Assembly: GCA_039796775.1 (NCBI GenBank)
Contig: JBDKJD010000003.1
Span: 12,697-76,696, forward strand
Direction: 5' to 3'
DNA length: 64,000 nucleotides
From: Candidatus Parcubacteria bacterium
GTDB taxonomy: Bacteria; Patescibacteriota; Minisyncoccia; Phycocordibacterales; UBA5272
In this document: in pieces, positions 1-47,769 of the stretch
Numbering within the stretch: position 1 is the stretch's first letter
Layout of the letters: every line of letters begins with the position of its first letter
Position numbers and translations under genes: made by a program
Notes under the pieces: model-generated
The model's database searches: none
Told to the model about the DNA's origin: nothing
What the model saw: only the letters and a program-made list of their open reading frames with translations

Positions 1-473
1 ACAGCCTGAGTAGTAGGGCATTCCAAAAGATTTTTTAATTCCTCAGTTTGTACATATCCTTTTTTATCTAGTAGTAGATCAAGCATTCTCTTCCTTTTCC
101 CATTTTCAGATAGGTCATACGAATAAACTTTTCCATCAATAACTCTGTTGAGGGACACGTCATTTGTATCATACACAACCACAAAATCACATCCTTGTAC
201 TTGTGGTGTTTTTTGTTTTTTCGCATTCAGTTGCCGTAGCTCCTTTAAAATCAAAACATCAGTTGGTTGATAGTTTATAAGGACGTGATGGTTTATTTCA
301 GGGAGAGTAAAAGCATTCTTCATTTCCGCTATGCGTTCAACTGTTGGTCTGAGCGTATCAAGTATTTTTTCTCGTTGTTCAGAAAACTTCTTCATTGTTT
401 CTTGAGCATCATCAAAATAGGTGCTACTGATCAATTCGCCAACTGTTTGTGGTTTTTTAGCATCTTTTGACAT
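1..473 (-). CDS. hypothetical protein, partial (runs off window start); divergent from lexA
   Basis: Uninterrupted minus-strand frame from ATG at 473 (MSKDAKKPQTVGELISS...) to position 1; absent from supplied track because truncated by window edge. Confidence 0.4.
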   Translation of the reverse strand, partial: MSKDAKKPQTVGELISSTYFDDAQETMKKFSEQREKILDTLRPTVERIAEMKNAFTLPEINHHVLINYQPTDVLILKELRQLNAKKQKTPQVQGCDFVVVYDTNDVSLNRVIDGKVYSYDLSENGKRKRMLDLLLDKKGYVQTEELKNLLECPTTQA

Positions 474-502: not shown

Positions 503-522
503 AGTATATAGTTATTTATACT
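503..522. promoter_or_regulatory. palindrome AGTATA-N8-TATACT in lexA upstream/divergent promoter region; candidate operator
   Basis: Perfect 6-bp inverted repeat arms 10 nt upstream of lexA ATG; two AAAGTATAT direct copies nearby. Confidence 0.25.
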
Positions 523-532
523 GAATTATACC

Positions 533-1153
533 ATGATACCAAATAACCTTAGTGACAAAGACAAGAAAGCATTTGCCCTTATCCGCAACAAGATTATCCA
601 TTATGGGAAGAGTCCAACTCTTAGTGAAATAAATGAAGTAACTGGTGGTAAATCTCCTCGATCAGCAAGTCTTGTGGTAGATCGATTGATTGAAGCAAAG
701 ATGATTAAGAAAGAAGGAAGAACATTGAAACTTATAGGCACTCATTCTACACAATCGATAAGTACGATTAACATCCCCTTAGTAGGGTCAGTAGCATGTG
801 GTATGCCTATTTTCGCAGAAGAAAATATTGAAACACTTATACCTGTATCAACTGCTTTAGCAAAAACAGGTTCAAAGTATTTTATTCTTCGTGCAAAAGG
901 AACATCAATGAATGATGTGGGGATTAATGACAATGATTTACTCTTAGTACGACAACAGGACACTGCAGATGATGGGCAAAAAGTAGTTGCTCTTATCAAC
1001 GATGAGGCGACCGTGAAGATTCTAGAGAAAGGTAATGGTGTAGTAATCCTTAGACCAAAATCTAAAGACAAAAGCCATAAGCCGATCATATTAACAAATA
1101 ATTGCACGATCCAAGGGGTAGTGGTTGCGGTACTGCCTGCAGATCTCTATTAA
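533..1153 (+). CDS. lexA: LexA-type transcriptional repressor (winged HTH + S24 peptidase)
   Basis: PLVGSVACGMP cleavage-site region, GTSM Ser nucleophile and VKIL Lys motif all align with the LexA/S24 self-cleaving fold; N-terminal HTH. Confidence 0.85.
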   Translation: MIPNNLSDKDKKAFALIRNKIIHYGKSPTLSEINEVTGGKSPRSASLVVDRLIEAKMIKKEGRTLKLIGTHSTQSISTINIPLVGSVACGMPIFAEENIETLIPVSTALAKTGSKYFILRAKGTSMNDVGINDNDLLLVRQQDTADDGQKVVALINDEATVKILEKGNGVVILRPKSKDKSHKPIILTNNCTIQGVVVAVLPADLY

Positions 1154-1157
1154 TAAA

Positions 1158-1397
1158 ATGACTAAAAGAAATATACATACTGTATACAACAAAGAGCGTG
1201 AGATGTGGGAAACAAAAAAAGAAGGGCAAGAAAAACCTCTTGCATCTTCACACACTAAAGCAACAGCAGAAGAAAAATCTGTAAGAGAAGCAAAGAAAGC
1301 TGGAGTCGAACATGTTATTCATAATAAGGACGGAAAGATCAGTGACAAAGATAGTTACGGCAATGATCCAATTCCTCCAAAAGATAAGATTCACTAA
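1158..1397 (+). CDS. hypothetical highly charged 79-aa protein, translationally coupled between lexA and CD-NTase
   Basis: ATG 4 nt after lexA stop; its TAA at 1395-1397 is followed by CD-NTase ATG at 1399; Lys/Glu-rich, no recognizable domain. Confidence 0.4.
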   Translation: MTKRNIHTVYNKEREMWETKKEGQEKPLASSHTKATAEEKSVREAKKAGVEHVIHNKDGKISDKDSYGNDPIPPKDKIH

Positions 1398-1398
1398 T

Positions 1399-2292
1399 AT
1401 GGCCTGGGAAGATACATTTAAATCATGGGGAGCTGCCCCAGGTAAAACAGAGCAAGAAAAGATGGAAAATGCGGAAACGGCAGTAAGGAAAGCGATTAGT
1501 GCAAACGCTAAACTTTCTTCTATGGATATATCTATTGTTCCACAAGGTTCATATAAATCAAGAACAAATGTTAGAAATGATAGTGATGTTGATATATGTG
1601 TTTGCCTAAACTCAACCTTCTTTCCAAGGTATCCTCAAGGAAAAACAAAGGAGTACTACGGTAATTCGGATGGAAGTATAACTTTTCGGGAGTTCAAAAA
1701 TCTCGTGCAAACTGCTCTTGAAGATTATTTTGGTAAAGAGAATATTACTCGCGGGAATAAAGCTTTTGATATCCACTCAAACAGTTACAGGGTGGATGCC
1801 GATGTTGTTCCAGCATTAGCGTATCGCTATTATTATGATGATGGAAGTCTCTACCATCACGAGCCGACTGGGATTGCTTTTGATACAGACAAAGGTGATC
1901 GTATTATAAATTGGCCACATCATACCTACCAGAATTGCAAAGATAAGCACGATAATACTGGTAAAAGGTATAGAAAAATGACACGAATACTAAAACGCTT
2001 ACGCAATAAAATGCAAGATGAGAATATTTCGGAAGCAAAAGATATACCTTCATTCTTAATTCAAAGTATGGTTTGGAGTGCTCCTAATGATAGCTTCAAT
2101 AGAGCTACCTATACTGATGATGTTCGTGCTGTTCTAGCTCATTGTTTTAATCAGACACTACCTGCGGGTGGTCATGCATCACTTAAAGAAGTAAATGATA
2201 TAAAAACAATATTTGGGCCTCATCAAGTGTGTACAAGAGAGAAAGCTCACGCATTCTTTTCAAGAGCTTGGGATTATATAGGTTTCGAATAA
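1399..2292 (+). CDS. CBASS cGAS/DncV-like nucleotidyltransferase (CD-NTase, SMODS domain)
   Basis: N-terminal WEDTFKSWGAAPGKTEQEKMENAETAVRKAI typical of SMODS. GSYKSRTNVRNDSDVDICV matches the GS...[DE]h[DE]h nucleotidyltransferase motif and YRVDADVV supplies the third catalytic Asp. About 297 aa. Start chosen at ATG 1399 rather than the in-frame extension from 1312. Confidence 0.8.
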   Translation: MAWEDTFKSWGAAPGKTEQEKMENAETAVRKAISANAKLSSMDISIVPQGSYKSRTNVRNDSDVDICVCLNSTFFPRYPQGKTKEYYGNSDGSITFREFKNLVQTALEDYFGKENITRGNKAFDIHSNSYRVDADVVPALAYRYYYDDGSLYHHEPTGIAFDTDKGDRIINWPHHTYQNCKDKHDNTGKRYRKMTRILKRLRNKMQDENISEAKDIPSFLIQSMVWSAPNDSFNRATYTDDVRAVLAHCFNQTLPAGGHASLKEVNDIKTIFGPHQVCTREKAHAFFSRAWDYIGFE

Positions 2293-2297
2293 ATAAT

Positions 2298-2921
2298 ATG
2301 GAAAAAATAAACAATACTGTAAAAGTCTACGCTCAATTTATAACATTCCTTGTTATTTGGGCAGTTATTGCTTTTGTTACGAAAACCTACCAAACAAATG
2401 ATTTGCTAAACATATTGAAACTAATCCCACAAGCAATAACTGGGTATTTATTTGTCGCATTACTTTTTTCAAGATGGATATGGAAACTAAAAATTTTACA
2501 GGGGTGGCTAATTAAAGTTCCAAATCTTCAAGGTACATGGAAAGGAGAAATAAAAAGTGATTGGATAAATCCTGAAACAGGAAAAGGAGTTGATCCTATA
2601 CCTGTTATTTTAGTGATACGTCAAACTTTCTCAACAATCAAATGCACCCTTATGACAAAAGAATCTACTAGTTATAGCACTACAGCTGATATTACATTAG
2701 TGCCAAGTAGTGAAGATTTATCTCTGACCTATAATTATACAAATAGATCAAAAGCAACGATAAGAGATAGAAGCCCTATTCACGACGGTGCTTCAATTCT
2801 AAAAATAATAAAAAGCCCAAAGAGAATTCTAGAAGGAGAGTACTGGACTAGTAGGAAAACACGAGGAGAGATGCATTTAGAGTTTTATTCAAAAGTTTTA
2901 TCCGAAAGTTTTAATAGCTAA
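2298..2921 (+). CDS. CBASS effector, two-TM beta-strand-rich (S-2TMbeta / Cap15-like) membrane protein
   Basis: ATG 5 nt after CD-NTase stop; two N-terminal TM helices (VYAQFITFLVIWAVIAFV, AITGYLFVALLFSRWIW) followed by about 130 aa with alternating beta-like pattern; about 207 aa, matching the known CD-NTase-associated 2TM effector architecture. Confidence 0.6.
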   Translation: MEKINNTVKVYAQFITFLVIWAVIAFVTKTYQTNDLLNILKLIPQAITGYLFVALLFSRWIWKLKILQGWLIKVPNLQGTWKGEIKSDWINPETGKGVDPIPVILVIRQTFSTIKCTLMTKESTSYSTTADITLVPSSEDLSLTYNYTNRSKATIRDRSPIHDGASILKIIKSPKRILEGEYWTSRKTRGEMHLEFYSKVLSESFNS

Positions 2922-2957
2922 CTTTAAACCTTGATTAGGTGAGCATATAATTATTAT

Positions 2958-3614
2958 ATGCGGACTTTTGACCAATATATTGAGATTCTTAATACCTCTC
3001 TTACTGAAAAAAAGCCAAAGATAATTTGTGCTTCGTGGATCTACAAGAATACTCCAAGCGTGTATCGTTATGTATGGAAGAATATTAAGACGGAAACTGG
3101 CCATGTTGATTGGGATAGGGTTACTTGTTGCTTAGATAGGTCGTTTCAAAGACGGTGGGTAAGACACAGACAGAAACAGGTAAAACTTTACAAAGAACAA
3201 TCAGAGGTAGACACTGTTTTGAATAGATATAAAGATAAGCTGTATACCTTCATCTGTGCTCAGTGTAAGGAAGATAAAGATGTTAAGGATAGGATTGTTA
3301 TTCGTCTAGTGCGAGTAAGTCAAAGGGGTAATATTTTAGCTCAAGCAGAACTTGTTAAGTGGATTAACTACACCGTGGACGAGTGGATTGATAGATATCC
3401 TCAAATCTGTAAATGGAAAGGCTACCGAGATGAAGCTGATGAACATATAAAGAGGTGTATTCGTTGCTACAGATATACAGGGTCATTTCTCGGATACCTC
3501 TTCAGGACTCTTGAGTATTCAGCAAGAGGTAAACCTCCACTTGCTTCTTTAGATGATAAATTCTGTGATGGAGAAAGGACACGAATTGACTACATCAGTT
3601 CTGAACCTTTATAA
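2958..3614 (+). CDS. hypothetical Cys/Trp/Arg-rich protein (10 Cys incl. CC, CxxC x2), same operon orientation as CBASS
   Basis: AGGTGA SD-like upstream; no recognizable domain; Cys pairs CAQC and CIRC suggest Zn binding. Confidence 0.5.
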   Translation: MRTFDQYIEILNTSLTEKKPKIICASWIYKNTPSVYRYVWKNIKTETGHVDWDRVTCCLDRSFQRRWVRHRQKQVKLYKEQSEVDTVLNRYKDKLYTFICAQCKEDKDVKDRIVIRLVRVSQRGNILAQAELVKWINYTVDEWIDRYPQICKWKGYRDEADEHIKRCIRCYRYTGSFLGYLFRTLEYSARGKPPLASLDDKFCDGERTRIDYISSEPL

Positions 3615-3622
3615 CTATCTAT

Positions 3623-3784
3623 ATGGAAAAAGATATTCAACCAAGTGAAGATGATCAAATTGATTATTTGGCAGAGATTTTAGTAGAAGTATATTTAGAA
3701 AGTAAGGGATACAAGCAGTATCCATGGCTTAATGGTGAGACAATGTGGAGAAAAGAACCTAAAGACGAGGAGGAAATCGAGTAG
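3623..3784 (+). CDS. hypothetical 53-aa acidic protein
   Basis: ATG 8 nt after previous stop; MEKDIQPSEDDQIDYLAEILVEVYLESKGYKQYPWLNGETMWRKEPKDEEEIE; below track length cutoff. Confidence 0.3.
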   Translation: MEKDIQPSEDDQIDYLAEILVEVYLESKGYKQYPWLNGETMWRKEPKDEEEIE

Positions 3785-3819
3785 TTCATATTTCCTTTTA
3801 TTTTTGTTAGGATTGCAGA

Positions 3820-4197
3820 ATGGGAACTACGACACAACCACTTGGTCCAGAATTTGCTAGTCAAATGGTTACTATGTTTTTAAATACTCTTCAGGAAGCA
3901 ACAGTAAAAGCGTACTTAATGCTTTGGGGTATATTGATTGCTTTCTTGAAAGAACACTGGCTTGGTGTTGCTGAAATTCTCTTAAGTATTCTTGGTATTT
4001 CACTTTTAGTATTTCTACTTACAGGAAGATGGGCAATGCTCGGTAGTGTACTCAATAGGTACTTCTTCTTTGGAATTCTCTTTATTATTGGACTTATCTT
4101 TGGTCCAGCAGTATTTGCTAATGATTATTTTGAAATCGTATGGGCTGTTGTGGGTATAATTGCTTTTGTTATTGTAGGGAAAATCTTTAAAGAATAG
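3820..4197 (+). CDS. hypothetical multi-pass membrane protein (125 aa)
   Basis: 3-4 predicted TM helices; followed by conserved 3' module and terminator. Confidence 0.5.
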   Translation: MGTTTQPLGPEFASQMVTMFLNTLQEATVKAYLMLWGILIAFLKEHWLGVAEILLSILGISLLVFLLTGRWAMLGSVLNRYFFFGILFIIGLIFGPAVFANDYFEIVWAVVGIIAFVIVGKIFKE

Positions 4198-4259
4198 TTA
4201 CACCTGACTGTAACATTATAGGTCTTATTTGTGTCACTTTTGTCACTTTTTCATATAGC

Positions 4260-4396
4260 CACGAGAAGGGTCAAAATGATATACTAAAAACTAACAAATA
4301 ACCTTTGTGGGGTAATGAATCCACTAAGTTCTACCTGTTGAACCCTCACATCGGTAAGAAAAACACCTGAAGCGTTAAGCTTTGGGTGTTTTTCTT
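4260..4396 (+). repeat. conserved 3' UTR module copy A (homologous to 5177..5304) ending in rho-independent terminator hairpin
   Basis: About 75% identity over about 135 nt with copy B, e.g. atactaaaaactaacaaataacc...gtaatgaatccactaagttctacct vs ataccaaaaactaataaatagac...gtaatgaacccgctatgttctacct; terminal hairpin aaaaacacc...ggtgttttt. Confidence 0.6.
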
Positions 4397-4628
4397 AGTG
4401 AGTGAACTGCTTCACTCACGTGCCGATGTGACGGCCACAGTCATGTTTTAGAAAAGTTGTATTCCTGACTTTTCTAAAACGGACGAGGCGGGGTCGCGAG
4501 TACTTATGAGCAACTCACACGAAGTGTGATTAGCGCAATTAGTAACTCGTGACCACATCAATTAGCACTAGTGCACGAAGTTCGAAAAAGTTACTATTAA
4601 ATTTTAATAAGAGTAAAACATAATTATT

Positions 4629-5165
4629 ATGAGTAATATTCCCACTCAAAACCAAAAAGGTAATATAGATATAACTGAGTATATAAAACTAACAATAACT
4701 ATCAGAGAAAAACTTGGTGAGAACTATTCTAAAGAGATGTCGCAACTTTTCCAGTATACCCAATCTTTAATGGGTGTACTTGGTCTAATTGCAGGATTTG
4801 GTTTTACTGCTTTTCAGTTTATAGAAAGCTATATCTTATTTTTCGTTGGGGAATTACTCGTTGTTGGTTCTGTTTTATATTTAGTATATAAAGTTAAAAT
4901 ATATACAGCAGCACAACCGATAAAGACTGAAGAGTATTTAAATAAATACCATGATAAAGCAAGGGAAATAAAAAGTGCTATTTTGTCTGATGATAAAGAT
5001 GCTATTAGTGCGTTGTCGGAAGAAATCAAAAAAGAAGTTAATGATACTTCTGAGATTCCTAAATTAAAAATAGCAAAAATTATAAGTGATTCTCTGAAAA
5101 AATCATTCTGGTTTAGTTCTGTGGGAATTATTTTAATATTTGCTTCTTTTGTTATTTGTTTATAA
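4629..5165 (+). CDS. hypothetical membrane protein (178 aa; 2 central TM + C-terminal TM, charged helical middle)
   Basis: ORF with hydrophobic segments; followed by 3' module copy B. Confidence 0.5.
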   Translation: MSNIPTQNQKGNIDITEYIKLTITIREKLGENYSKEMSQLFQYTQSLMGVLGLIAGFGFTAFQFIESYILFFVGELLVVGSVLYLVYKVKIYTAAQPIKTEEYLNKYHDKAREIKSAILSDDKDAISALSEEIKKEVNDTSEIPKLKIAKIISDSLKKSFWFSSVGIILIFASFVICL

Positions 5166-7056: not shown

Positions 7057-7476
7057 CTAATACTTCTTAAGCCACTCATTCATTATCTTAATCTCACTCT
7101 CTTGAGCAGTAATAATATCTTGGGCGAACTTTCTTAATTCAGAACTTATTGTTTTATCCTCCAACAAAAGCTTCGCCATATCCACCGCCCCTTGATGATG
7201 AGGAATCATATCTGTGATAAATGCTTTCTCTAATTCCTTGCCACTTTTGCCACGCATATTAGCGAGCATATCCATCATCATGCCTTCCACGCTTCCACCG
7301 TGATTCATCATCATAGATTCATCCCCCATGCGATGCATCATCATAGATTTTTTACCTTCTTTGTAATCTCCATCTCTATCAAAACACATATTCCACACAC
7401 AGCAAATGAATAAACCGAGCACAACAATGGAGAGTCCAATAGTTGTATATTTGTAATTAATATTTTTGAAAATCAT
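7057..7476 (-). CDS. DUF305 family protein with N-terminal TM anchor and Met/His-rich segment
   Basis: MIPHHQGAVDMAK DUF305 motif; MMMH/MMMN repeats. Confidence 0.6.
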   Translation of the reverse strand: MIFKNINYKYTTIGLSIVVLGLFICCVWNMCFDRDGDYKEGKKSMMMHRMGDESMMMNHGGSVEGMMMDMLANMRGKSGKELEKAFITDMIPHHQGAVDMAKLLLEDKTISSELRKFAQDIITAQESEIKIMNEWLKKY

Positions 7477-26915: not shown

Positions 26916-27221
26916 TTATTCAGCAATCTGTAATAGCTTCGCCATCATTTCTTGATTGAAACCAACCATCACATCTTCGCCTATCTTGATAACAGGCACA
27001 CCCATTTGACCTGTCATTTCTACCATCTCTTTGCGTTTATCAAGATTCTCAGCAACGTTATAATCTGTGAAAGCAATATTCTTAGAGCCGAGCCAATCTT
27101 TGGCCATATGACAAAAGTGACATGTCGGGGTGCTATAAATTTCCACATTATGTATTTGATTAACTTCTATTGTTTTTGTATCCATATAGAGTAGAGTATA
27201 CAAAATATTCACGGGAATCAA
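26916..27221 (-). CDS. glutaredoxin/NrdH-like thioredoxin-fold protein
   Basis: YSTPTCHFCHMAKDWL CxxC active site; likely real start at internal Met (MDTKT...). Confidence 0.6.
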   Translation of the reverse strand: MIPVNILYTLLYMDTKTIEVNQIHNVEIYSTPTCHFCHMAKDWLGSKNIAFTDYNVAENLDKRKEMVEMTGQMGVPVIKIGEDVMVGFNQEMMAKLLQIAE

Positions 27222-47566: not shown

Positions 47567-47769
47567 TTAGCCTCCCCTGAATTCAGTCATAACTGTCTTC
47601 ATAATCAAGGTAAGGTACATCTAATAGTACAAAAAGGAGCCTCAAAGTCAAGAAAAAAATAGCTTCAAAAAAAGATTCTCTGTGAATAGACAAGATGGGA
47701 TTCTGTTGTCTTATTTATCTCTTATTTTACTTGTCTTTTTTGACACTTTTGTTACTATGAGAAGTATCT

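Follow-up and report, generated by a model that had tools for sequence, protein, structure and literature searches.

The four co-oriented genes at positions 533-2921 of the window (the whole stretch of 64,000 nucleotides that we analysed) encode what is, by its gene content, a minimal type I CBASS consisting of a CD-NTase and a Cap15 effector, fused behind a genuine LexA-type S24 repressor with which it is predicted to be co-transcribed. We consider it somewhat better than an even chance, with a probability of roughly 0.55, that lexA, a DUF2188 gene, cdnE and cap15 form a promoter-sharing and RecA-responsive operon, which occupies a LexA-anchored cassette slot of the Paceibacteria. All four ORFs were found at the coordinates given in the initial annotation of this DNA, and the gaps between them, read from the sequence, are 4, 1 and 5 nt:

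533-1153, plus strand: lexA, 206 aa, with a winged-helix N-terminal domain and an S24 autopeptidase domain
1158-1397, plus strand: DUF2188 small protein (PADLOC candidate PDC-S16), 79 aa, an optional 'leader' gene placed after lexA and before the cargo
1399-2292, plus strand: CD-NTase, most similar to clade E (CdnE), 297 aa, the predicted cyclic-nucleotide synthase of the CBASS
2298-2921, plus strand: Cap15-type effector, 207 aa, with two N-terminal TM helices and a cyclic-dinucleotide receptor β-barrel domain

The identity of the two CBASS genes was assessed by profile and similarity searches. The CD-NTase matches the PADLOC cyclase profile at 2.6e-118, its best match among solved structures is CdnE, a cyclic dipyrimidine synthase (7x4f, 1.3e-69), and its three best PDB relatives are all CdnE proteins; the GS/DxD/D site is intact, with G50, S51, D63, D65 and D135 invariant among six relatives. 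No close relatives of this enzyme were found in IMG/VR with single-protein patterns. The effector matches Pfam PF18153 Cap15_CD_rec (2.6e-22; 79.9 bits, cutoff 31.2), the PADLOC 2TM effector (9e-74) and, at 1e-3, the Cap15 barrel 7n34; hydropathy places its TM segments at residues 10-28 and 39-57, and one of its relatives carries PF23471 Cap15_TM. Among the other ORFs of 533-5165, profile and PADLOC searches gave no matches to Cap2, Cap3, HORMA or TRIP13. These data bear out the earlier proposal of a minimal type I system with a Cap15-like effector. The two-gene core, catalytic residues and effector architecture are those of the type I CBASS proteins CdnE (7x4f) and Cap15 (7n34), from which the present system differs in its regulatory context and in its DUF2188 leader gene.

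The head gene was likewise correctly recognized. Its product scores above the cutoff of the NCBIfam lexA equivalog TIGR00498 (136.8 bits, cutoff 110.95, residues 5-201 of 206), matches Pfam Peptidase_S24 at 3.9e-27 with the S24 domain covered over the full length of the profile, and can be aligned with E. coli LexA over its full length, C89-G90 corresponding to the A84-G85 cleavage site and S125 and K162 to S119 and K156. Across 10 homologues (72-100% identity), S125, K162 and the cleavage-site region are invariant, which implies selection for cleavage and leads us to predict that the protein cleaves itself. The VAC-G sequence of this site, which the initial annotation had singled out as unusual, is real and equally invariant in the LexA lineage, and is therefore a lineage trait and no local oddity. 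Were the repressor non-cleavable or RecA-independent, owing to its Cys-Gly site or to other changes particular to the lineage, it would act as a plain autoregulator or answer to some other signal, and the cassette would be unlinked to DNA damage. This we hold to be the least probable of the readings considered here: the site does depart from Ala-Gly and tblastn located no recA in the window or in the related loci, but Cys-Gly is also the natural cleavage site of UmuD, and both the invariance of the dyad and cleavage region and the full-length S24 match speak against it. No uvr or dinB was found in the sequence of the window and loci, and the large ORFs of the window are, by Pfam, housekeeping genes or without an SOS-repair domain.

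The fusion of lexA to a defence system, which had been presented as a feature of CBASS, proved to be recurrent but not CBASS-specific. We surveyed the cargo behind lexA at 48 distinct Paceibacteria loci, and found CBASS in 20, Thoeris in seven, MBL plus TM in six and TIR-like/caspase in six; the rest were Pycsar and PDC-M36A (two each), Shedu and Ymh/HEPN-like (one each) and three unidentified cargos. The 20 CBASS cargos include type I systems, in which the CD-NTases belong to at least three clades and are 24-80% identical, as well as HORMA-containing systems and an HNH-SAVED system. Among the cassettes not assigned to an established system are unk303, a PDC-M36A-like one and a Cas2-like + C135 + EEP nuclease set. 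Complete Paceibacteria genomes with the module include CP011215.1 and CP175956.1. Whatever the cargo, the next ATG lies 3-9 nt past the lexA stop in 41 of the 47 loci in which this distance was measured, a gap that leaves no room for a separate promoter. As dozens of independent loci repeat it, the tight linkage of lexA and cargo is far beyond chance. In Magasanikbacteria we found a related arrangement, in which lexA is divergent from a methylase-ResIII-CdnE-Cap15 operon. On this comparative evidence, lexA is followed throughout the lineage by a slot in which defence cassettes are interchangeable, and DNA-damage signalling probably controls these swappable immune cassettes. In the window, the slot comprises the following:

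1154-4195, plus strand: variable (cassette) region between two conserved boundaries
1161-2955, plus strand: block swapped relative to the closest relatives, from blastn against locus L004
2958-3614, plus strand: orf218, Cys-rich, preceded by a promoter-like TTTAAA-17-TATAAT, the end of which lies 6 nt upstream of its ATG
3623-3784, plus strand: orf53, in the variable region
3820-4197, plus strand: orf125, a membrane protein in the variable region
4196-4251, plus strand: conserved right-boundary element of ~60 bp, made up of a GTTACA-N6-TGTAAC hairpin, TATA-rich bases and then TGTGTCACTTTTGTCACTTTTT

The exchange of one cassette for another can be seen directly by comparison with L004, the flanks of which are 91-95% identical to the window (blastn homology at 471-1160 and 2956-4025) and which, where the window has DUF2188-CdnE-Cap15, carries an MBL (PDC-M48B-like) plus TM pair. 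The replacement is precise between the conserved flanks, with the breakpoints falling exactly at the first cargo ATG, and may have come about by homologous recombination in these flanks. At one further locus (L096) CdnE-Cap15 occupies the same position although lexA is missing; retention of the cassette therefore does not require LexA. On the far side, the right-boundary element occurs once per locus, 1.36-5.1 kb past the lexA stop, in 40 of the 48 loci. Its hairpin is terminator- or promoter-like by appearance; the folding energy is -11 to -14 kcal/mol at the other loci (z ~ -4) and only -5 kcal/mol in the window. The ~100-nt conserved stretch beyond it gave no consensus RNA structure and no Rfam family, on which grounds a known ncRNA was rejected. 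Of the remaining genes of the variable region, orf218 recurs at the cargo end in 11 loci; it gave no match in Pfam, NCBIfam, PHROG, PADLOC or PDB, no terminator-like hairpin separates it from Cap15, and it may have a promoter of its own.

The DNA upstream of lexA is shared with a divergent operon, and contains the putative regulatory signals listed here:

1-473, minus strand: 'C3', 5' portion of the gene for a ~200-aa protein, which opens the operon running divergently from lexA
474-532, no strand assigned: bidirectional control region of 59 bp between C3 and lexA, read from the sequence
494-499 and 517-522, plus strand: putative lexA promoter, TTGCAT and TATACT with a 17-nt spacer, the -10 box ending 10 nt before the lexA ATG
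488-480, minus strand: putative divergent promoter, extended -10 TGaTATACT ending 6 nt before the C3 ATG
504-521, no strand assigned: candidate LexA operator, palindrome GTATA-N8-TATAC, overlapping the lexA -10 box and the -35 region of the divergent promoter

Because TATACT ends so close to the ATG, the lexA mRNA is predicted to be essentially leaderless. The layout TTGC-N-TATACT-N9-ATG is kept in 37 distinct upstream regions. A generic promoter/terminator scan did not call the promoter at 474-532 and showed no enrichment over shuffles, and we therefore base the promoter assignments, which are inferences, on conservation across loci. For the palindrome, 61 perfect copies of GTATA-N8-TATAC were found in 926 kb of examined sequence, where ~3 are expected by composition, and all 61 lie at lexA promoters. 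The copy at 504-521 is the only perfect one in the window, in which three 1-mismatch palindromes represent chance level. Such a conserved palindrome over the lexA -10 box fits autorepression, and we designate it a candidate operator by its conservation and position, with a half-site spacing (GTAT-N10-ATAC) that differs from that of the E. coli box.

Promoter evidence of this kind also bears on the possibility that lexA is simply a core gene beside a recombination hotspot, and that internal promoters, on which LexA has no influence, express the cassettes. It is common for hotspots to have conserved genes at their edges, AT-rich DNA yields many promoter-like hexamers, the scan showed no enrichment, and the lexA-less locus retains its cassette. 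Nevertheless, we think this reading very unlikely, since independently expressed insertions would not be expected to show short gaps at the great majority of measured loci, strict co-orientation and breakpoints placed at the first cargo ATG, and no terminator-like hairpin follows lexA.

The divergent operon introduces a more serious rival. The full C3 gene and its upstream neighbours are present on an identical contig (L002), where the operon continues beyond the window with a ParB-N6/N4 methylase, TerS and TerL (PHROGs matches of 7e-74, 1e-8 and 6.6e-78 respectively), and this C3/methylase/TerS/TerL synteny is found in ~35 of 41 loci. C3 itself matched nothing in Pfam, NCBIfam, PHROG, PADLOC or PDB, and neither it nor TerL or TerS was matched by PADLOC as a defence gene. 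In the lambda cI-rexAB locus, exclusion genes are linked to a prophage repressor, CI, an HTH_3-domain protein that acts as an activator of its own promoter, PRM. By analogy with such 'moron' genes, the LexA-like protein might be the maintenance repressor of a phage-derived element, whether satellite-like or a degraded prophage. The cassette would then ride on the repressor transcript and be expressed constitutively as long as the element stays dormant. Cleavage under SOS conditions would chiefly activate the packaging operon, and the CBASS would be induced incidentally or not at all. We regard this as possible, if doubtful. Besides the phage-type operon, it draws on the large serine recombinases that flank several loci, on whole modules in tandem on one contig (L027/L042, 87-93% identical) or present twice in one MAG (L037/L039), on a module instance on an IMG/VR contig and on a viral contig (L052) with a related C3-methylase-TerL block followed by large ORFs and including a Cap15 homologue. 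Prophage and satellite defence hotspots are, moreover, established (Rousset et al. 2022, PMC9122126). Against it, the chromosomal loci lack portal, capsid or tail genes behind TerL, and downstream of ~5.3 kb the ORFs of the window are housekeeping genes with no prophage structural genes among them. The protein is a full canonical LexA by its NCBIfam equivalog and not of the HTH_3 CI type, and synteny of the adjacent genes (DGR, type III-like RM) is kept from one species to another, which fits long vertical residence. Negative autoregulation would, in any case, raise cargo expression on cleavage. The present locus resembles cI-rexAB in having, beside phage genes, an S24 repressor that is predicted here too to be self-cleaving, RecA-sensitive and co-transcribed with an abortive-infection module, and differs from it in its canonical LexA, its exchangeable cargo and the lack of a complete prophage.

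Because it is paired with the divergent ParB-methylase/TerS/TerL operon and occurs in tandem copies, LexA may be an element-borne repressor instead of the housekeeping SOS regulator. A still more tentative extension is that the whole is a phage-derived, possibly satellite-like module with LexA as an SOS-gated platform, in which cassettes are swapped at the junction, the same operator gates TerS/TerL, and damage triggers immunity and mobilisation together. If true, the arrangement would be integron-like in function without the integron machinery. Promoterless cassettes, a single upstream promoter and an SOS link (predicted in our case) recall integrons with a LexA-controlled integrase; unlike these, the loci contain no IntI tyrosine recombinase and no repeated attC sites, the right-boundary element being single, and they hold one cassette at a time. 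The slot also resembles the P2/P4 and other phage and satellite hotspots (Rousset et al. 2022, PMC9122126), which are fixed positions between conserved phage-related genes with many alternative defence systems. It differs in host phylum, in its flanks (lexA and a 60-bp element) and in the predicted operonic coupling to a repressor.

The initial annotation had placed LexA in the position of CapH/CapP, the known DNA-damage-responsive regulators of CBASS. Half of this claim stands: there is no HTH repressor plus M78-type metallopeptidase pair at the locus, where the divergent gene is C3. The positional half does not, since the two-protein CapH/CapP module is encoded on the other strand, upstream of its operon (Lau et al. 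2022 preprint, bioRxiv 10.1101/2022.04.27.489752), whereas a single LexA, predicted to be self-cleaving, is the first cistron here. What the two have in common is a proteolysis-controlled, DNA-damage-sensitive repressor (a property predicted for LexA) attached to CBASS and other defence operons. A further parallel is offered by the leader gene. The 79-aa ORF matches DUF2188 (2.1e-12) and, over its full length, PADLOC PDC-S16 (5.3e-23), which is a candidate defence system only; its AF2 model (pLDDT 80) gave no convincing fold match. DUF2188 is the first cargo gene in 14 of the 48 loci, preceding differing systems, and in Nitrosomonas and Saprospiraceae its homologues, 70-90% identical, stand first in other defence-like operons. 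Both DUF2188 and DUF3892 take the leader position at the lexA slot, and both are also found with defence operons that CapH/CapP regulate in response to DNA damage (Lau et al. 2022). Given that a response of LexA to damage is predicted, this would be a second, independent association of the two families with such regulation.

In the promoter-sharing, RecA-responsive operon that we favour, one near-leaderless promoter would drive lexA together with any promoterless defence cassette plugged in immediately past its stop codon. LexA would bind the palindrome and keep its own operon at a buffered basal level, and would probably also repress the adjoining divergent promoter, from which the C3/ParB-methylase/TerS/TerL operon would be read. 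RecA would be activated by DNA damage or by ssDNA arising from phages, upon which LexA would cleave itself at Cys89-Gly90 via Ser125/Lys162, repression would lift and the levels of CdnE and Cap15 would rise. On infection, CdnE would make a cyclic dinucleotide, probably dipyrimidine-containing, which would bind the Cap15 β-barrel, and the two TM helices would then disrupt the membrane, resulting in abortive infection. A transcriptome preprint on E. coli reports that expression of defence systems correlates negatively with that of recA, and SOS induction of defence is therefore no general rule.

Among the papers that our literature search covered, none joins CBASS, LexA and S24, and a broader search on defence regulation returned only WYL, CapH/CapP and activator-type regulation. 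The WYL regulators CapW and BrxR, of CBASS and BREX (PMC9122601, PMC9122589), are similar in being dedicated transcription factors beside varied defence systems or islands; they differ in having an unrelated, ligand-sensing fold without autoproteolysis, and are not known to be the first cistron of the operon. The locus is a variant of known regulated CBASS and of known defence hotspots. Control of the expression of toxic abortive-infection systems is largely open, with CapH/CapP and WYL proteins as the known dedicated regulators, and the locus suggests that a classical SOS repressor has been coupled directly to numerous unrelated defence systems by first-cistron fusion at an exchangeable slot. 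This offers a connection, open to testing, of RecA/LexA signalling to CBASS, Thoeris and Pycsar in a phylum whose members are tiny, uncultured and episymbiotic and whose immunity other than CRISPR has been little described, and lexA together with the right-boundary motif TGTCACTTTTGTCAC provides a simple genomic 'bait' for new defence systems in CPR metagenomes.

The four genes of the operon proposed by the initial annotation were recovered as co-oriented ORFs separated by only 4, 1 and 5 nt:

533-1153, + strand: lexA (LexA)
1158-1397, + strand: DUF2188 protein (Pfam, PADLOC PDC-S16)
1399-2292, + strand: CD-NTase (PADLOC cyclase, CdnE structures)
2298-2921, + strand: Cap15 effector (Cap15_CD_rec, PADLOC 2TM effector, 7n34)

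The CD-NTase, which had been recognized by its GS...DxD...third Asp motifs, matched the PADLOC cyclase profile (2.6e-118) and had CdnE enzymes as its closest solved structures (7x4f, 1.3e-69), and residues G50, S51, D63, D65 and D135 were unchanged across six relatives with identity down to 23%. The assignment of the last gene as a 2TM β-rich Cap15-like effector was likewise borne out by matches to Cap15_CD_rec (2.6e-22), the PADLOC 2TM effector profile (9e-74) and the 7n34 barrel, and by two hydrophobic helices at residues 10-28 and 39-57. The 79-aa ORF was present as annotated, and its family, left unnamed at that stage, is DUF2188 (Pfam, 2.1e-12; PADLOC candidate PDC-S16, 5e-23). As these matches were accompanied by no Cap2/Cap3, HORMA/TRIP13 or CapH/CapP genes at the locus, lexA is followed by a type I CBASS in minimal form, the core of which is ordinary.

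The first gene is, as previously proposed, a LexA-type S24 repressor, matching Peptidase_S24 (3.9e-27) and NCBIfam TIGR00498 ‘transcriptional repressor LexA’ (136.8 bits, cutoff 110.95, residues 5-201). Its alignment with E. coli LexA covers the full length and places Cys89-Gly90 on the scissile Ala84-Gly85 and Ser125 and Lys162 on the catalytic dyad. Approximately 3,000 proteins matched at E≤1e-10; the best 120 of these were 72-100% identical and nearly all 204-225 aa long, and the sources named were Parcubacteria, Nomurabacteria, Paceibacterota and ‘Patescibacteria group’. The VAC-G site noted initially was present and, together with Ser125 and Lys162, invariant in a 10-sequence alignment of the lineage; judged by this alignment, the predicted Cys-Gly cleavage site is a character of the LexA lineage. 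Since UmuD is naturally cleaved at Cys-Gly, the site is no argument against LexA self-cleavage.

The window was compared with 40 loci from species-representative genomes, 26 from metagenomes and several exact-match contigs. Past the lexA stop codon, the next co-oriented ORF began within 3-9 nt in 41 of 47 distinct loci, in a slot whose defence cassettes (cargo) vary between related Paceibacteria loci; junctions this short make a simple adjacency of lexA and cassettes unlikely. The cargo was CBASS in 20 of 48 distinct loci, including type I systems, with CD-NTases only 24-80% identical with that of the window, CD-NTase+HORMA+2TM systems and an HNH-SAVED system with an AGS-C cyclase.

Other cargos in the slot
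Thoeris ThsB+macro-ThsA: 7/48 loci
Metallo-β-lactamase (MBL; PDC-M48B/LmuA-like) + membrane protein: 6/48 loci
TIR-like, with or without caspase: 6/48 loci
Pycsar PycC+PycTM: 2/48 loci
PDC-M36A: 2/48 loci
Shedu with Cas2-like gene: 1/48 loci
Hypoth_Ymh/HEPN-like pair: 1/48 loci
Assigned to none of the named systems: 3/48 loci

With other systems in most loci, the fusion to lexA is not specific to CBASS. The closest relatives of the window, with 96% identical LexA and 91-95% identical flanking DNA, carry an MBL+TM pair in place of DUF2188-CdnE-Cap15, and in one of the loci compared (L004) homology with the window spans 471-1160, stopping on the first cargo ATG, and picks up again at 2956, two bases 5′ of the ATG of orf218 (2958-3614). 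What the window carries is thus one of several alleles of a cassette that can be exchanged, and not a one-off fusion of genes. The variable region of the window (1154-4195) further includes orf218, orf53 and orf125, a membrane protein, and no family match was obtained for any of the three; no hairpin was found between cap15 and orf218, and a TTTAAA-17-TATAAT match lies directly 5′ of the orf218 ATG. In some loci (L011 6616-7527, L020 and L069) lexA and CdnE-Cap15 are separated by a gene for a 303-aa protein that matched nothing in Pfam or PADLOC, followed in L069 by a 752-aa protein without an assigned family; we regard the 303-aa protein as a candidate for a new accessory of CBASS or a new defence gene.

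In 14 of 48 loci the cargo begins with DUF2188, which precedes CBASS, TIR, MBL, Shedu or HEPN cargos, and elsewhere a 69-aa DUF3892 protein (22.4 bits, cutoff 22.3) or another 69-aa protein occupies this leader position. Both DUFs were reported from CapH/CapP-associated operons by Lau et al. (2022, bioRxiv 10.1101/2022.04.27.489752), who credit their defence link to Burroughs & Aravind 2020. DUF2188 also adjoins the P. aeruginosa Pa011 CBASS and a Thoeris island. Homologues of the window protein share 70-90% identity, and in the two inspected DUF2188 heads an operon, with an 8xMP membrane protein in a Nitrosomonas MAG (L091 6001-7161; 88% identical) and with Multi_ubiq/ThiF/BubE in a Saprospiraceae MAG (L093 6001-9041; 73%). 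These operons are defence-like, unrelated and from distant phyla, and such cross-phylum conservation is unusually high for a 79-aa protein. An AF2 model (pLDDT 80, β3-α-β2) had no convincing structural neighbour; our guess is that DUF2188 is a regulatory or sensing accessory.

At the left edge, the layout cTTGC(a/t)-N-GTATAg-N8-TATACt-N9-ATG is kept in 37 distinct lexA upstream regions. In the window, the predicted lexA promoter comprises TTGCAT (494-499) and TATACT (517-522), 17 nt apart, and as the -10 ends 10 nt 5′ of the ATG, a near-leaderless lexA mRNA is predicted. The palindrome GTATA-N8-TATAC (504-521) overlaps this -10; a search of 926 kb gave 61 perfect matches, every one of them at a lexA promoter and a single one in the window, and we infer that it is a putative LexA operator. 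On the opposite strand, an extended -10, TGnTATACT (488-480), lies 6 nt 5′ of the ATG of the divergent gene, with the left half of the palindrome in the expected -35 position, so that one bound LexA dimer could shut both promoters. At 474-532 and 2923-2960 of the window and in 37 upstream regions, a -10-like hexamer ending 6-10 nt 5′ of the ATG, without a Shine-Dalgarno sequence, was observed for lexA, orf218 and C3 (an approx. 200-aa protein encoded first in the divergent operon), which suggests leaderless transcripts; the internal cistrons are separated by only 1-5 nt.

The right edge is marked in 40 of 48 loci by a single-copy element of approx. 60 bp (4196-4251 in the window), 1.36-5.1 kb (median 2.07 kb) past the lexA stop, in which a AAGTTACA-N6-TGTAACTTT hairpin is followed by TATA-rich bases and by TGTGTCACTTTTGTCACTTTTT. 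In other loci this hairpin, taken together with its A and T tracts, looks terminator-like (-11 to -14 kcal/mol, z about -4); that of the window is weak (-5 kcal/mol). Directly 3′, about 30 loci share a conserved stretch of approx. 100 nt (window 4252-4360; L079 2186-2285; L016 7082-7181), preceded in some by a 56-83-aa ORF (C8), in which a pair of direct repeats (GCaCGAGAC...) with a spacing of about 75 nt, covarying between loci, surrounds a CCTTACAGGGCTTGaCCGA core. RNAalifold gave no consensus structure and Rfam no family for this stretch, which may be a site for protein binding, recombination or packaging. The non-coding region 4320-4580, parts of which are conserved in L003, folds into a multi-stem junction far better than shuffles (MFE -127.5 kcal/mol, z = -7.9, for 4250-4600). 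No Rfam family matched it, the best hit, Thr_leader, having 23.7 bits where the gathering score is 55; the region may encode a structured RNA that has not been described. TGTCACTTTTGTCAC-like sequences (up to 3 mismatches) occur 10 times in the window against 2.5 expected, and no shuffle had as many as 10; the sites include 27108-27122 (-), 47741-47755 (+) and 7239-7253 (+), and one site is 15 nt 5′ of the start codon of ThrRS. Instead of being slot-specific, the motif may serve this organism generally, in promoters, in UTRs or as a regulator site.

The divergent operon, found in about 35 of 41 loci, encodes in order C3 or an alternative small protein, a ParB_N+N6_N4 methylase (phrog_498, 7e-74), TerS (phrog_4044, 1e-8) and TerL (phrog_38, 6.6e-78; Terminase_6C above the Pfam cutoff), with no portal or capsid genes 3′ of TerL in chromosomal loci. 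Farther from lexA, a diversity-generating retroelement (RT+bAvd) and a type III-like methylase/helicase pair are encoded, and some loci have a large serine recombinase in addition. Beyond TerL (L002 1-9941; L044 1-9942; upstream of the left end of the window) we observed the retroelement as RVT_1 + bAvd, and in L002 the recombinase as well. The pair, which has opposite orientations in the two species, consists there of an N6/N4 methylase of 568 aa and a ResIII/SNF2 helicase of 767 aa. Viral contigs with TerL 38-41% identical have several more large ORFs downstream, which are absent from the chromosomal modules. One 55.9 kb IMG/VR contig (L052) keeps the C3-methylase-TerL order (53% identical), followed by ORFs of 813, 445, 1008 and 456 aa, and on the opposite strand it encodes a homologue of Cap15 (68%); this contig may represent a phage related to the chromosomal module. 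The window itself is chromosomal Patescibacteria DNA, its remainder encoding SecA, Mur ligases, MsrAB, aminoacyl-tRNA synthetases, GyrB and four tRNAs, and proteins identical to its own occur in Candidatus Parcubacteria MAG GCA_039796455.1 and one Logan contig. Whole modules (TerL-TerS-methylase/lexA-cargo) lie in tandem 12.7 kb apart on one contig (L027/L042; LexA 87%, TerL 93% identical) and twice in one MAG (L037/L039), with core proteins 87-93% identical, the same operator and different cargos (Shedu vs Pycsar; TIR/caspase vs CBASS). On this evidence, the module resembles a unit of phage origin that may be mobile or duplicating.

S24-DUF2188-CdnE-Cap15-orf218 recurs in L097 (CD-NTase 60% identical), and in a Magasanikbacteria genome lexA is divergent from a methylase-ResIII-CdnE-Cap15 operon, a second architecture of the LexA-defence link. 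In L096 (5530-7523), CdnE-Cap15 lies directly opposite C11-methylase-TerS-TerL with neither lexA nor the GTATA-N8-TATAC palindrome, and the cassette is thus retainable without LexA. The regulation proposed for the locus is similar in function to that by CapH/CapP or WYL regulators, but the locus has neither the HTH/metallopeptidase pair nor a WYL domain and belongs to neither group. The slot is comparable to the P2/P4 hotspots, and its logic recalls an integron; it has neither IntI nor attC. Neither defence operons headed by LexA nor this Patescibacteria hotspot had been described in the literature searched.

The analysis establishes the gene identities, the intactness of the active sites, the spacing of the junctions, the exchange of cassettes, the conserved boundaries and the exclusivity of the palindrome to lexA promoters. 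The main rival to control of the cassette by LexA is a cI-rexAB-like arrangement, in which the repressor would be that of the element and the cassette mainly a passenger with constitutive expression; these readings overlap, the distinction being whether this LexA controls repair genes. In the LexA-controlled mechanism that we propose, a single transcript would run from near 530 through lexA and the cassette, with LexA on 504-521 buffering basal expression, and RecA*-stimulated cleavage of LexA at C89-G90 would induce both divergent operons. Upon infection, CdnE would make a cyclic dinucleotide and Cap15 would permeabilise the membrane.
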